From a virus (lineage: Duplodnaviria > Caudoviricetes): 64,000 nt of DNA. A model generated the notes under the pieces. The model was given only the letters and a program-made list of their open reading frames with translations, was not told where the DNA came from and made no database searches. The stretch is taken from IMG/VR virus record IMGVR_UViG_2721755587_000001; one strand, 5' to 3'. The position numbers and the translations under genes were made by a program. Positions 3,340 to 15,595 of the stretch are shown piece by piece. How positions within the stretch are numbered: the first letter of the stretch is position 1; each line of letters begins with the position of its first letter.

Positions 3340-4018
3340 CCTGGAGGTCCAAACCATGGATGCAGCAAGGCCACTACGGGTTTGCATACGATGCACTGGT
3401 CAGCACTCGGTGCAGCACTGCCCTTGGCCATCAGGAGATGACAAATAAAGGTTGGCGCAATCTAGTGCGGGGCTAAGTGAAAACACCTAGAAAATATATC
3501 TGCATGACGTTTTAATCACAAACAGGTGGTGTGCGCACTGCGGAAATATCGCCGGAAACCTAAGCGCCGTGCGGGTTTCCGGCCTGATTACCCATCCCGA
3601 TGCAAAACGCGCTGGCGCTTGGAAAAGGAGATTAGCAAATTTCTTCGCGCGCGCAACTATTTGATCGGAACGCCTTTTTGGGGCGTTTGCAGAGTGGTCG
3701 AAATGCCCTTAAAGTCATCTCCACACCGAATCAAACAAGGGGAGTCACCGTGAAACAACAGGGCAAGAGCGAACGCTATTCGAACTCTGCCCCGTCTGAC
3801 ATGCGGGGTGCCGACTACCCAAGGGACGGGAGAACGATGCTGCGTCGACCGCGCTGTCAGCGAGACTAGCCCCTGATCCTCCATTCGACCCGGTGCCGCA
3901 GCCTTGTAGCCTAGCCGGCAACTGGGCCCATCGCAGTTCGACGCATTGAAAAACTGCTGGAATCAATAGCCATATGTGGCGCATAATAGTTCGATGATGC
4001 TATCGAGGAGGGATTCGC

Positions 4019-11970: not shown

Positions 11971-12608
11971 TGGGTAGTCAAAAGCTCTTGAATCAGGGCT
12001 GGTTGGACCACAGCCCCGTCCGCAAGCCCCGCGCCGGCCATATCGGTGAACAGGTCTTTGCGGAGCGGTGGCGCGAGTTGATGGCGAGCGTTCCCCTGCA
12101 TGGAGAGGGCCATCCCAACGAGATGCTCGAGACGATCCTGCGCAATTACCACAAGGACCAAGTCGATCAACGCGATGCTACTGTGGCTGCAACGGTGGTC
12201 TGCTGGCTTGGCTGCAATTGCGGTCGGGCTATCCTGTACATCGCGAAGCGATTGAAAGAGCTCGGGGCTGGACCCGAGTCATACCTGTATGCCTGGGCAG
12301 GAGAAAACCGGAGGTCTTTGGGGATCAATCGTGGCTACAGGACGATCGAATACATGCTTGCCCCTGACGACCACTTTGGGCGGCAATGGCCACATGAATC
12401 AGAGTTGAGCCTGGTTCGTCGCCCGGAAATTTCAGTCAATGACCTTGAGGTCGCGGAGCACCTCTTTGCCTGGTTCAGGACTGGCGACGGGGAGGCATGG
12501 ATCGCAGAGTCTGAGCGGGAAGTAGACCGCCGCCAGGCGGAGGCCTACAGGCTCGGGCACGACAAGTGGCGCGCAGAAGCTGTTTGCCTAGGACCACTAG
12601 CCGAGTAA
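11967..12608 (+). CDS. phage hypothetical protein
   Basis: ATGA overlap; QRDATVAATVVCWLGCNCG. Confidence 0.65.
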   Translation: MMGSQKLLNQGWLDHSPVRKPRAGHIGEQVFAERWRELMASVPLHGEGHPNEMLETILRNYHKDQVDQRDATVAATVVCWLGCNCGRAILYIAKRLKELGAGPESYLYAWAGENRRSLGINRGYRTIEYMLAPDDHFGRQWPHESELSLVRRPEISVNDLEVAEHLFAWFRTGDGEAWIAESEREVDRRQAEAYRLGHDKWRAEAVCLGPLAE

Positions 12609-12616
12609 AGTTTTTG

Positions 12617-12644
12617 TTGAAAAATATGCATACATGGCTATACT
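12617..12644 (+). promoter_or_regulatory. sigma70 promoter with operator-like site, driving the structured RNA region
   Basis: TTGAAA-16-TATACT; ATGCATACATGGCTA 12626-12640. Confidence 0.7.
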
Positions 12645-12649
12645 TAGGC

Positions 12650-14630
12650 CAATACGAATTCTGCTTCGTTGGTGAAGGCCTCCTCGGCCGTGGGGCACCG
12701 CCGAACTGCAGGAAGATTGGCCGGTCGTAAGCGGCCCCGAGCAATCCACCGTATTGCACATGCGGCCCGCGCAAGCGGGGAGTCAAACGTCCGTCTCCTA
12801 CGGCAGCCCGAAAGGACAGGGTAATGTGCAGTGTCCTTGATAGTCGGCCGCGCCGCCGTGCATCGAAACGCCGGCGCGGCCAGTCTGTCACCAATCTCGG
12901 TAAGCACATTCAGCGAGTGCGCTTACCGAGACTGGATGGTGACCCTTCAAGACGGTCTCTTTAAATGTCTACCAAGGGCGCAGTGGTTCGCTTGAGACAC
13001 GAACCCGACTGGCCGGCGTAACCGGCTACAGAATGCACCCCGAGAGGGCCGCGCTGCAGCAGTACGCAGCAATCCGAATGACTGCCGTGGTGGGTGGTCG
13101 CTAGGTAGGTCCGACACAAGACTCAGCTAGCGCACCTCTCGCTTGCTGGCGCGGCTGACAGCGAAAAGTCGGCCACCTGTTGCAAGATGGCTCCGCCGCA
13201 GGAGTCTGACGCATCGCCGGACGAGAGTACCCGGCTGGAATTCCTGATCGCCACCAGTAGCCGGGTCGCCACCGGCGAAGGAGAAGAGGTGGCAGCGAGA
13301 CGGTAGCGTGCGGGGCGCAAGGCCCAATCCGTGACTAGCCGGGGAGAGTACCGGCATCTTCAAGCGTGCGGCTGCCCCGAGCGGGGTATCCCGCGATTCC
13401 AGGCCACACACCTATGTGCGGCCGCACACTTGAGGGTGAGAACACGTAGCGCGTGAATGGACTGGTCCTCCGCGCGGCAGATAGAGAACCGCGACGAGCC
13501 GGAGTAGCGACCGGCCACCTTCAGCTTTCAAGTGAGCGTCCTGCTGTCCAGTGGGCGCGGCCAGAGATGGCGACAAGAGGTGGTAGCGCACCTCAGCAGC
13601 TAAAACGCAAATGAGCGATCCGGTGGGCCTTTGGCCACATGACTCCGGTAGCAGGGTTGGCACGCATAGCCTCCCTGCCTTGTTCCCGAATTGGCGACAG
13701 GTGCTCAGGGCGTTCACTTGATGGCATGCATGCGAATGCACCTTTCAGACAGGTATAGATTGGACTCTTGGCCTGGCAGTCGGTGGAAGCCCGACCCTTC
13801 ATGCATCACCATCTCGGGGTCACGGGGTTGTAGCCGGACCTTAAACGACGGTCTGACCCGCGCCGGTGTGGTGATGCATGAGGGAATGCGCGGGCTGACG
13901 CGCGGCGGATGGAAGCGAACCGGCGGCGACGAATGTCCTGGGCCGTACCACGTAAGTGAGCAAAGCGGCGAATACAAAAAATCACCGCGTCCCTGTGCCG
14001 GGATCAGCGCCGGCCCCTCAGCCGCAAGCCCGGAGGCGGCGCGCAAGCGAAAAACACACGGGACGGATTAGCAGAGTGCGGGCGGACCGAAATGCCGTCG
14101 CTGGAATCGTAACCAGCACCTTCATGGATGTCTGTTTTCAGAGAAGTGACTCGCCCAAATATCATTGGGAAGGAGAACGTAACGTCCAGGGACATCCATG
14201 AGGGGCCACCTAGTCGTCAGCCCGTGGGCCGAGCAGGCAGGTGATATGCGGTGATCCGCGCCCTCTACTGTATGCGGGCTTGGCCGAGTGGTCAGGCAGC
14301 GGCCTTCCAAGCCGCCAACGCCGGTTCGAATCCGGCAGCCCGCTCCAAGAAACCTACCGCACAATAGGGCGGATGCTGGAACCCGTAACCAGCTCTTTCA
14401 TGCATGGCGATTGCCAAAGGGCCAGCGAAAGCAGCCGCCGACCGCCCGGCAATAGGTGGCGGCAGTCGTCATGCCTGAAAGTGAAGCGGGGATGCGAGCC
14501 CCGTATCAGGACACTCCTCTGTCGAAAGCCAAAAATGCCGCCACTTGCCAGGCGGAAGGCGCGAGCTGGGAGCAAGAGAAACCTGCATGGACTTTGCGTG
14601 CCGCCGGGGTAGCGTCCGGCCACTTTCTTC
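12650..14630 (+). ncRNA. candidate polycistronic structured ncRNA array
   Basis: no credible ORF; chained 15-21 bp stems, repeated GCCGG-loop-CCGGC hairpins, GNRA tetraloops, embedded tRNA. Confidence 0.65.
14274..14347 (+). tRNA. tRNA-Gly (anticodon TCC)
   Basis: acceptor GCGGGCT/AGCCCGC, anticodon arm GCGGC-CTTCCAA-GCCGC, T arm GCCGG-TTCGAAT-CCGGC, T discriminator, encoded CCA. Confidence 0.95.
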
Positions 14631-14654
14631 AATTTCGACAACGGGACGAAACGA

Positions 14655-14810
14655 ATGGCATACCTGCTCTTGTTGGTGGTGCTCTGCTTCTGGCGTTTTC
14701 CCGTGACGCCGGCGCTGTCGGGGGCTGGATCGCCCGCCTGGCGGAGTCAGCCAAGCCCACAGCCTACTCCACGCCTGGGTGCCAGGGCATGGAAAACGGA
14801 GTGGGGTTAG
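14655..14810 (+). CDS. possible 51-aa peptide with hydrophobic N-terminus
   Basis: MAYLLLLVVLCFWRFP...; weak RBS; precedes the terminator. Confidence 0.3.
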   Translation: MAYLLLLVVLCFWRFPVTPALSGAGSPAWRSQPSPQPTPRLGARAWKTEWG

Positions 14811-14849
14811 TGGCAGCACCATGACGACTTCAACACGGGAATGTTGACG

Positions 14850-14879
14850 AAACCCGGCTTCGGCCGGGTTTGTCTTTTC
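14850..14879 (+). terminator. intrinsic terminator
   Basis: AAACCCGGC-TTCG-GCCGGGTTT then T-rich. Confidence 0.85.
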
Positions 14880-14902
14880 TGGGGTCGGCTAGATCCGCTA
14901 GC

Positions 14903-15595
14903 CTAGATCTTGTCGAAGCTAGCCATCAGCATGAGCCGGCCCGCGGTGTCAGGGTGCCACGCTTGTACCAGCTCCTTGTGCCGCATCCCAGGCTCGGCGT
15001 ACAGGATTCTCACCGCGACAATTCCGACGTGGTAGGACCAATAGGCGAATGTGCACCTGCCATCGACGTCGTTTCCATTCACTTCTGTCCAGCCCGCGAC
15101 CCTAGTACCCGGCTCGTGGGACGGTGTTGGACCGATGGCAATGAAGACGTGCGGATGCGCCGTTCGAGTAAGAAAAGCACTCGCAAACGGGCGGAGATCG
15201 ATTGGAACCTTGTGTTCGGCGATTAGACAGCCGAAAAGCTTCACGAAATAGAGGTGGGTATCAAGCAAAGCATCCTCCACCGGTTGCTTGAATACTTCAG
15301 CCATCTCAATTGAGTCCCCCGGTCGGATAGATGGTCGACTTCTCAGATCGCCAGACAATTGCTCCCATGCTTTGTCATACGGCTGGCTGAGATTGTTGTT
15401 GCAGTCCGCGCATAGAAGAGCCTTCGACTTGAAGGCCGGATCCATCACTGTGCGTTTTGGGACGTTGCGCGCCTTACTCGAGTGAACATAAAGAAGCTTG
15501 TTCTGAGAAACGTGCCCAAACAACCCCCTCAGATCGGAGACCTTCATCAGGTGCTCTCCCGTCTCGGCAGCTTTCCCGCAGATCCAGCAATCCAT
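14903..15595 (-). CDS. HNH-like nuclease domain protein (moron)
   Basis: CWICG...TGEH...CADCNN; GGAGG RBS; opposite strand to neighbours. Confidence 0.7.
   Translation of the reverse strand: MDCWICGKAAETGEHLMKVSDLRGLFGHVSQNKLLYVHSSKARNVPKRTVMDPAFKSKALLCADCNNNLSQPYDKAWEQLSGDLRSRPSIRPGDSIEMAEVFKQPVEDALLDTHLYFVKLFGCLIAEHKVPIDLRPFASAFLTRTAHPHVFIAIGPTPSHEPGTRVAGWTEVNGNDVDGRCTFAYWSYHVGIVAVRILYAEPGMRHKELVQAWHPDTAGRLMLMASFDKI

Follow-up and report, generated by a model that had tools for sequence, protein, structure and literature searches.

Ribonuclease P (RNase P) matures the C4 RNAs of phages P1 and P7 and the CI RNA of phage P4, which are excised from longer early transcripts by way of a part resembling the acceptor and T arms of a transfer RNA (tRNA). 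The tRNA operon of phage T4 yields further structured RNAs that are not tRNAs (the stable species 1 and 2, rnaC/rnaD), whose function was unknown for decades. Engineered tRNA scaffolds stabilize inserted RNAs in Escherichia coli, and in such scaffolds and in polycistronic tRNA-guide RNA arrays, an RNA is put at the anticodon-arm position or between tRNAs for processing by the host. Here, we describe an array of tRNA-shaped units at positions 13,012 to 14,627 of a 64,000-nucleotide (nt) stretch of caudoviricete DNA (IMG/VR record IMGVR_UViG_2721755587_000001; hereafter, the window). The window belongs to a prophage, and the genome that carries it comprises two replicons and 8.4 Mb. The array contains two RNA families, U and V, that are absent from Rfam 15, and neither fold is described in the literature searched. 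Our favored interpretation, to which we assign slightly less than an even chance, is that an early prophage transcript (12617-14880) carries a tRNA-Gly and tRNA-shaped scaffold frames that mature stepwise with long hairpins.

The locus was originally singled out for hairpins of 5 base pairs (bp) resembling the T stem of its tRNA-Gly, and reading of the sequence places all eight at the positions reported: GCCGG/CCGGC at 13012, 13338, 13498, 13997, and 14603; GUCGG/CCGAC at 13779; and GCUGG/CCAGC at 14100 and 14375. The first of these has a loop of just 5 nt (CGUAA) and no detectable acceptor-like partner. The T stem of the tRNA-Gly(TCC) is indeed the same as the GCCGG/CCGGC hairpins, but this identity is not specific to that tRNA: GCCGG is the family consensus in phages with other tRNAs or none, and an origin of the hairpins from this tRNA-Gly was rejected on that ground. 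Ten of the 18 plus-strand occurrences of G[CT][CT]GG-N6-10-CC[GA][GA]C in the window sit in 13216-14620. A stricter motif (a perfect, G+C-rich 5-bp hairpin followed after 0 to 2 nt by C[CT][CT]TCA) occurs five times in 13498-14393 (~0.9 kb), and with both strands of the 8.4-Mb genome counted (~225 raw matches per 16.8 Mb of strand), no other place has at least three such separate hairpins clustered. The clustering is far beyond chance.

Each strict-motif hairpin adjoins a long helix whose 5' arm begins with CYUUCA and whose 3' arm finishes with UGARGG (13356-13437, 13522-13727, 13796-13884, 14119-14204, and 14395-14481). Alternatively, the purine-rich 3' arms can form acceptor-like stems with the CYUUC strand that comes after the following hairpin. 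The four such pairings of the original prediction exist as described: 13432-13438/13516-13522 and 14477-14483/14621-14627 have 7 bp each, the first being extendable to 9 bp, and 13184-88/13356-60 and 14200-04/14261-65 have 5 bp each, with comparative support absent for the two shorter ones. The GAGGG/GAAAG strands double as closers of the long hairpins 13356-13437, 13796-13884, 14119-14204, and 14395-14481. In other words, the 5' strand of a closing stem is the last 5 to 7 nt of the preceding long hairpin, and its 3' strand is the first 5 to 7 nt of the next. Because the strands are shared, the long-hairpin and cloverleaf folds are mutually exclusive, and the overlap that had been proposed on this point is real.

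Three units of the window have comparative support. They were scored with two covariance models, R1 (built from 22 family U sequences) and R2 (family V), whose E-values are rough:

13430-13524, plus strand: family V tRNA-shaped unit (R2, 61.3 bits, unit in seed alignment; R1, E = 0.045), with closing stem 13430-38/13516-24, D-like hairpin 13443-13455, middle arm 13473-13493 (loop CAGAUAGAGAA), and T-like hairpin 13498-13515 (loop AGUAGCGA).
13879-14020, plus strand: kissing-loop cloverleaf of family U (R1, 57.9 bits, E = 7.5e-15, unit in seed alignment), with closing stem 13879-84/14015-20, D-like hairpin 13888-13903 (loop GGGCUGAC), a 93-nt insert, and T-like hairpin 13997-14014 (loop GAUCAGCG); GCUGA at 13894-98 is complementary to UCAGC at 14004-08.
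14477-14627, plus strand: family V tRNA-shaped unit (R2, 58.8 bits, unit in seed alignment), with closing stem 14477-83/14621-27, D-like hairpin 14488-14502, a long insert, and T-like hairpin 14603-14620 (loop GGUAGCGU).

All three combine a closing stem of 6 to 9 bp with a 5-bp hairpin, separated by 0 nt. A first hairpin resembling a D arm follows the 5' strand of the closing stem after 2 to 4 nt, and a variable insert takes the position of the anticodon arm. The claim that the locus holds a family of tRNA-like modules mimicking T arm and acceptor stem is backed by covariation in dozens of relatives and by the shared orientation of units and tRNAs.

Family U was sought with an exact 23-nt string located after the H3 hairpin (13796-13884), GAGGGAAUGCGC-N-GGCUGAYGCG, which matched 46 IMG/VR contigs. 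The unit closes 32 to 200 nt further on in about 40 of the 46 with GCCGG-(A)GAUCAGCR-CCGGC-CCCUC, an ending unspecified by the pattern. The fold comprises the closing stem (N)GAGGG/CCCUC(N), AAU, a GCGC hairpin with loop AGGCUGAU, the variable insert, and a GCCGG hairpin adjoining the closing stem; it is defined by (A/G)GGCUGA(U/C) in the loop of the GCGC hairpin, AUCAGC in the loop of the GCCGG hairpin, and a 0-nt junction to the closing stem. The two loops are complementary (GCUGAU/AUCAGC, duplex of -7.6 to -8.3 kcal/mol), and their modeled pairing looks like a Watson-Crick version of the elbow between the D loop and T loop of tRNA. Covariation links the two bases that flank the closing strands, 5' of GAGGG and 3' of CCCUC (U-A, G-C, or A-U, with a handful of exceptions); the 22-sequence alignment has UA at this flanking pair in 15 rows, GC in 6, and no pair in 1. 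Under R1, the window copy spans 13877-14025.

The comparison extends well beyond the exact matches. A relaxed 18-base core is present in at least 120 species genomes, compared with ~17 matches expected by chance, and R1 applied to 80 of these loci returned 61 matches at E < 0.001, ~50 of them full-length (>37 bits). These derive from Gamma-, Beta-, Alpha-, and Deltaproteobacteria, the few metagenome-assembled genomes of other phyla being untrustworthy. Paired cells make up 98.6% of the 61-match alignment, as opposed to 34 to 46% in slid controls, and G-U pairs occur. There are 137 double-change cells versus 33 +/- 4 in shuffled alignments, and 0 of 500 shuffles reach the score; fitting the alignment to the model flatters these values, yet the margin is large. 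Changes affecting both partners are seen at each of the six closing-stem pairs and each of the five T-like pairs. With loop 1 fixed by the pattern, loop 2 contains UCAGC in 37 of 61 units and CAGC in 42 of 61, rising to ~50 of 61 when G-U variants (UCAGU), read off the loop list, are counted. Twenty cultured Ralstonia phages carry a near-exact core, unannotated in all. Within the order to which the window's genome belongs, R1 detects the fold in 3 of 151 sampled genomes, a patchy occurrence indicating that it travels with mobile elements, as expected of phage cargo. On a Pseudocitrobacter vendiensis contig (L127), the Hfq-binding small RNA (sRNA) isrJ (3517-3593; Rfam, 58.9 bits) precedes a kissing-loop cloverleaf by ~100 nt and shares its strand.

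Phage P1 is among the carriers. R1 matches it at 69818-69920 (51 bits), where all three stems are swapped compensatorily and the loops are kept, and its insert is nearly the same as that of one metagenome contig. The copy lies under the annotated plp/upl coding sequences (CDSs) and has dmt, the C1-controlled ban promoter, and two tRNAs upstream of it, a layout resembling the window's order of methylase, promoter, and array. It is found in 547 of 5,426 complete E. coli genomes and has no RefSeq annotation there. Minus-strand "hypothetical" CDSs cover plus-strand arrays both in Ralstonia phage p2110 (54947-55627) and in P1 (plp/upl, 69472-70041) and are probably artifacts.

Family V takes in the two 7-bp copies of the original prediction. 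GCCGG-N-GUAGCG-N-CCGGC-CAC has exact matches in 23 IMG/VR contigs, and the family is defined as GCCGG-NGUAGCGN-CCGGC followed directly by CAC plus 4 to 9 nt that are complementary to an upstream strand of 4 to 9 nt plus GUG; both window copies (13428-13526 and 14475-14629) have this form. In each of 20 distinct instances, the sequence following CAC complements a GUG-ending strand located 99 to 185 nt upstream. This 5' strand was located through a complementarity search, and in 12 of the 20 it lies immediately before a conserved D-like hairpin, GCGUG-GAAAGCAGA-CACGC, which itself varies compensatorily (GCGGG/CCCGC and GCGCU/AGCGC). The closing stem is 95.2% paired in an 18-sequence alignment (slid controls, 22 to 51%), every row is paired at the four variable positions closest to the junction, which have three to five pair types each, and double-change cells number 49 versus 17.8 +/- 3.5. 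One contig (L102) holds a close homologue of 13428-13526, with compensatory changes in the closing stem, D-like stem, and middle arm. The V model R2 cross-matches family U units weakly (E = 1e-4 to 3e-3), so the two families are probably related.

The array as a whole has no collinear homologue: BLAST of the entire region against phages and related genomes yields mosaic matches the size of single modules. Modules are shared with Ralstonia phage p2110, whose array is annotated as a minus-strand hypothetical protein; with the Bcep22-like Burkholderia phages BcepIL02, DC1, BcepMigl, and CSP3; with Burkholderia phage Mica and Xanthomonas phage RiverRider; and with several genomes of the same genus. 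The shared modules differ compensatorily (GCUGG/CCAGC versus GCCGG/CCGGC and GUCGG/CCGAC versus GCCUG/CAGGC), and these comparisons show that selection acts on the modules as RNA structures.

Arrays and tRNAs keep company. In 12 of the 46 contigs, the U unit has on its own strand a downstream tRNA (Met, Asn, Gly-TCC, Thr, Ala, Gln, Tyr, or Leu) at a distance of 0 to 2 kb (11 of the 12 at no more than 1 kb, and sometimes at 5 to 10 nt), and none of the 46 has a nearby tRNA on the opposite strand. One relative (G129) has a tRNA-derived element that has lost its anticodon arm (Rfam tRNA, 33.3 bits) enclosed in the long helix before the U unit, and its array terminates in a tRNA-Gly missing its middle. 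Five contigs have the U unit directly after a gene, with the hairpin in front absent, indicating that the cloverleaf can stand alone. The U insert is hypervariable, with at least 17 classes of 32 to 200 nt among 42 units, within an almost invariant frame. The tail after the closing stem begins with A in 34 of 61 units (56%), and ACC occurs within 5 nt in 18 of 61 versus ~5% expected; a universal CCA end was rejected, the tail being merely ACC biased.

Two side observations concern these arrays. Part of the window's U insert (13904-13925) has a 10-nt perfect complement (CGAACCGGCG), plus 4 nt after a bulge, to the variable loop and T arm of the tRNA-Gly (14319-14340); the chance estimate is ~1 to 2%, and the complement was not seen in two other tRNA-Gly(TCC) arrays. 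A conserved gene of ~95 codons ending in ...DKFYVDFTPA is found inside or just before the arrays of several prophages (L031 of the genus relative G129, minus strand, ~1940-1660; also L049 and L077).

Read as a naturally occurring tRNA scaffold, the tRNA-shaped frame would serve to process and stabilize small RNAs made alongside phage tRNAs. Host tRNA-maturation enzymes would recognize it, with RNase P cutting at the 5' side of the closing stem and 3' trimming occurring at the A/ACC tail, and the frame would shield the variable insert from decay. The modeled stack of 6 to 7 plus 5 bp and the partial A/ACC tail make an RNase P processing signal plausible. RNase III would cut the long hairpins (15 to 21 bp). 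The 5' strand of each closing stem would at first be locked in the base of the preceding hairpin, and cutting would free it to form the cloverleaf, such that several stable small RNAs and the tRNA would emerge from the array step by step. A wider generalization, to a superfamily of natural tRNA scaffolds across phages of Proteobacteria, with a loop-loop elbow, interchangeable cargo, and arrays of RNase III hairpins and tRNAs that refold stepwise into a small-RNA cocktail, is doubtful, and we rate it well below the reading for this transcript.

Several points weigh against the scaffold reading. The nearest-neighbor model prefers the long-hairpin register: forcing one closing stem costs from +3.5 to +18 kcal/mol over the unconstrained minimum free energy of 13326-14640, and forcing all six costs +50, against which the loop-loop duplex gives back -7.6. 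From this cost, the bare full-length transcript is predicted to occupy the hairpin register, and the cloverleaf register should need tertiary contacts, proteins, or cleavage. Hallmarks of tRNA are missing from the units (UUCRA in the T loop, GG in the D loop, and an anticodon loop of 7 nt), and the Rfam tRNA model does not detect the units, making recognition by tRNA enzymes an assumption. An ACC-like tail is present in just ~30% of units and absent in P1. The U alignments were gathered with an exact 5' pattern, so that their constant 5' half and constant loop 1 arise by construction. Finally, comparative support covers three of the ~7 candidate units in the window, and the remainder have E-values of 0.037 to 6.8. 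The weak R1 matches in the window, all on the same strand and each extending from a purine strand to a hairpin with a pyrimidine strand behind it, are 13717-13806 and 13429-13528 (E of ~0.04) and 14197-14271 and 14476-14631 (E = 1.6).

The transcript in question fills a gene-free stretch of ~2.2 kb, there being no convincing gene between the end of an open reading frame (ORF) at 12608 and the end of a minus-strand ORF at 14903. A C5 DNA methyltransferase lies upstream, and a NinI-like phosphatase and baseplate genes lie downstream. The ORFs inside the stretch are short, as expected at 60% G+C, and those in 12610-14650 gave zero Pfam or PHROG matches. Protein coding of the stretch was rejected because Pfam and PHROG are silent on the inner ORFs and on a 51-codon ORF at 14655. 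On sequence features, 12617-14880 is a single noncoding prophage transcription unit, running from a predicted promoter to a predicted terminator. Besides the three units described above, it contains the following:

12617-12644, plus strand: sigma-70-like promoter TTGAAA-16-TATACT (10 of 12 consensus matches), the likely start of the noncoding unit.
13012-13026, plus strand: hairpin GCCGG-CGUAA-CCGGC in a conserved 5' block, the same in the genus relative G315 and compensatorily changed in phage Mica (GCCGC-CGUAA-GCGGC).
13338-13437, plus strand: T-like hairpin 13338-13355 adjoining long hairpin H1 (arms 13356-13378/13416-13437); the upstream partner proposed for the T-like hairpin, AAGAU at 13184, gives 5 bp and is unsupported.
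13522-13727, plus strand: long hairpin H2, with a ~20-bp base and a structured 162-nt top.
13717-13801, plus strand: weak tRNA-shaped unit (R1, 10.7 bits, E = 0.037) with stem 13719-24/13796-801 (5 of 6 paired, no comparative support), GNRA hairpin GCAU-GCGA-AUGC, and T-like hairpin 13779-13795.
13796-13884, plus strand: long hairpin H3, with a 17-bp base and a top 84% identical to that of Ralstonia phage p2110.
14032-14123, plus strand: possible unit by sequence reading, GGAGG 14032-36/CCUUC 14119-23 (R1, E = 6.8, not significant), with GNRA hairpin CGC-GCAA-GCG and T-like hairpin 14100-14117.
14119-14204, plus strand: long hairpin H4, with a 15-bp base.
14200-14265, plus strand: possible short unit by sequence reading, GAGGG 14200-04/CCCUC 14261-65 (R1, E = 1.6), with hairpin GCGG-UGAU-CCGC at 14248-14259.
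14274-14347, plus strand: tRNA-Gly, anticodon TCC (ARAGORN; Rfam tRNA, 66.4 bits).
14375-14481, plus strand: T-like hairpin 14375-14393 adjoining long hairpin H5 (arms 14395-14415/14461-14481, 20 of 21 paired, 2 G-U); in Bcep22-like Burkholderia phages, the T-like hairpin is GCCGG-AACCCGUAA-CCGGC (compensatory), and the top is 97% identical in BcepIL02.
14850-14880, plus strand: strong intrinsic terminator, the end of the unit.

Rfam searches of 12000-15500 with E-values of up to 5 return this tRNA-Gly as the sole tRNA match. No Rfam 15 family beyond it matches, the Rfam transfer-messenger RNA (tmRNA) families are silent, and ARAGORN finds no tmRNA.

Three further elements were noted in the same stretch. 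A 45-nt element at 12936-12980 (GGAUGGUNACCCUUCAAGACGG...UUAAAUGUCNACCAAGGGCG), Rfam negative and with a long hairpin in front, is kept in Burkholderia phage Mica and in G315 (84% across 125 nt), and part of it is kept in Xanthomonas phage RiverRider. A 200-nt noncoding block at 13031-13235 recurs at 71 to 79% identity in four same-genus genomes (G352, G005, G011, and G019), and the copy in G352 is followed by two further modules of hairpin plus long helix. The 51-codon ORF (14655-14810, plus strand; PHROG negative), between the last tRNA-shaped unit and the terminator, has a hydrophobic N terminus and a weak ribosome-binding site and may encode a small membrane peptide or nothing.

The rival that survives best, although we consider it unlikely, is that the units are trans-acting, chaperone-bound sRNAs like STnc100 and PasD, with the insert as a seed for phage or host mRNAs and the tRNA shape incidental or stabilizing. 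It overlaps partly with the scaffold reading and differs on the purpose of the frame. Hypervariable inserts would suit target-specific seeds; isrJ lies upstream of one U unit; and P1 holds a second, weaker copy of the fold with a sub-threshold match to STnc100 (33.4 bits versus a gathering threshold of 47; E = 5e-4). [quoted passage not shown] However, the STnc100 model (RF02076) stays below its gathering threshold everywhere it was applied and gives no match at all in the window (E <= 5), the genome (E <= 1), or eight enterobacterial U loci (E <= 0.01), and the units are accordingly not filed under STnc100. Moreover, the units are without the Rho-independent terminator and U tail present in most Hfq sRNAs, and no targets were identified.

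Phage tRNAs are established as a counter to tRNA-targeting defenses, which lends some appeal to a second, improbable alternative, in which the units would act as decoys or sponges and engage host factors specific for the upper half of a tRNA (for example, toxins of defense systems that alter or cleave the 3' end of tRNAs, or RNase P itself). Mimicry of the acceptor/T stack and elbow, the multiple copies within an early transcript, and the presence of tRNAs in the same phages would fit, but hypervariable inserts would go unexplained, and no pattern of linked defense or counter-defense genes was seen. The narrower proposal of the original prediction, decoys for anticodon nucleases, is the least likely reading, given that an insert of 32 to 200 nt without a 7-nt anticodon loop leaves nuclease types such as PrrC, RloC, and PARIS nothing to recognize and that the Rfam tRNA model is silent.

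Slightly less probable than decoys for the upper half of a tRNA is a cis-acting RNA switch, antitermination element, or insulator leader for downstream genes. The mutually exclusive registers would fit, as would the P1 array's place in the leader of the C1-controlled ban operon, but the strong terminator and the opposite strand of the next gene leave the window array only the doubtful 51-codon ORF to control. A marginally lower chance goes to conserved frame halves that serve chiefly as DNA-level recombination linkers between exchangeable phage modules or to units that are decaying tRNA pseudogenes devoid of RNA function: module shuffling is mosaic, near-identical frame halves surround unrelated inserts, P1 shares its insert with a metagenome contig, and relatives have a truncated tRNA-Gly and a degenerate tRNA, but compensatory stem changes and G-U pairs are tolerated only by RNA, the units are always on the tRNA strand, and their Proteobacteria-wide conservation argues for purifying selection rather than decay.

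Rfam lacks both of these families of structured RNA, although they are common among phages and prophages (P1 as well as phages of Burkholderia and Ralstonia), and their arrays are left blank or are misannotated as hypothetical proteins (the p2110 CDS and P1 plp/upl). The covariance models permit correct annotation even without assignment of a function and define precise constructs for RNase P, RNase III, and structure probing. If the frames are tRNA-shaped carriers that do deliver variable RNA cargos, this would explain the long "gene-free" stretches beside phage tRNA genes, phage small RNAs would gain a new class, and the engineering of tRNA scaffolds would have a precedent in nature.

Among catalogued families, STnc100/PasD1/PasD2 of Salmonella and pathogenic E. 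coli come closest, in that they too are structured small RNAs in intergenic regions of prophages; the literature searched contains no tRNA-like reading of STnc100 or PasD. The C4 and CI RNAs share with the array complementary short boxes that recur within one transcript but have no sequence similarity to it, and they are single antisense regulators with known targets, in contrast to an array with interchangeable inserts. Models of tRNA, tmRNA, and the Y-RNA-like YrlA give no match to the units, although tRNA, the tRNA-like domain of tmRNA, YrlA, and the tRNA-like structures of plant viruses resemble them in the four-way junction, coaxial stack of 6 to 7 plus 5 bp, loop-loop elbow, and A/ACC-biased tail; the units differ in having an elbow of five to six Watson-Crick pairs and in lacking the T- and D-loop consensus and the anticodon arm. 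Species 1 and 2 of T4, likened here by description alone, are likewise structured RNAs embedded in a phage tRNA operon and differ in host range. Engineered tRNA scaffolds, finally, are man-made, and the array described here is what we infer to be their natural counterpart.

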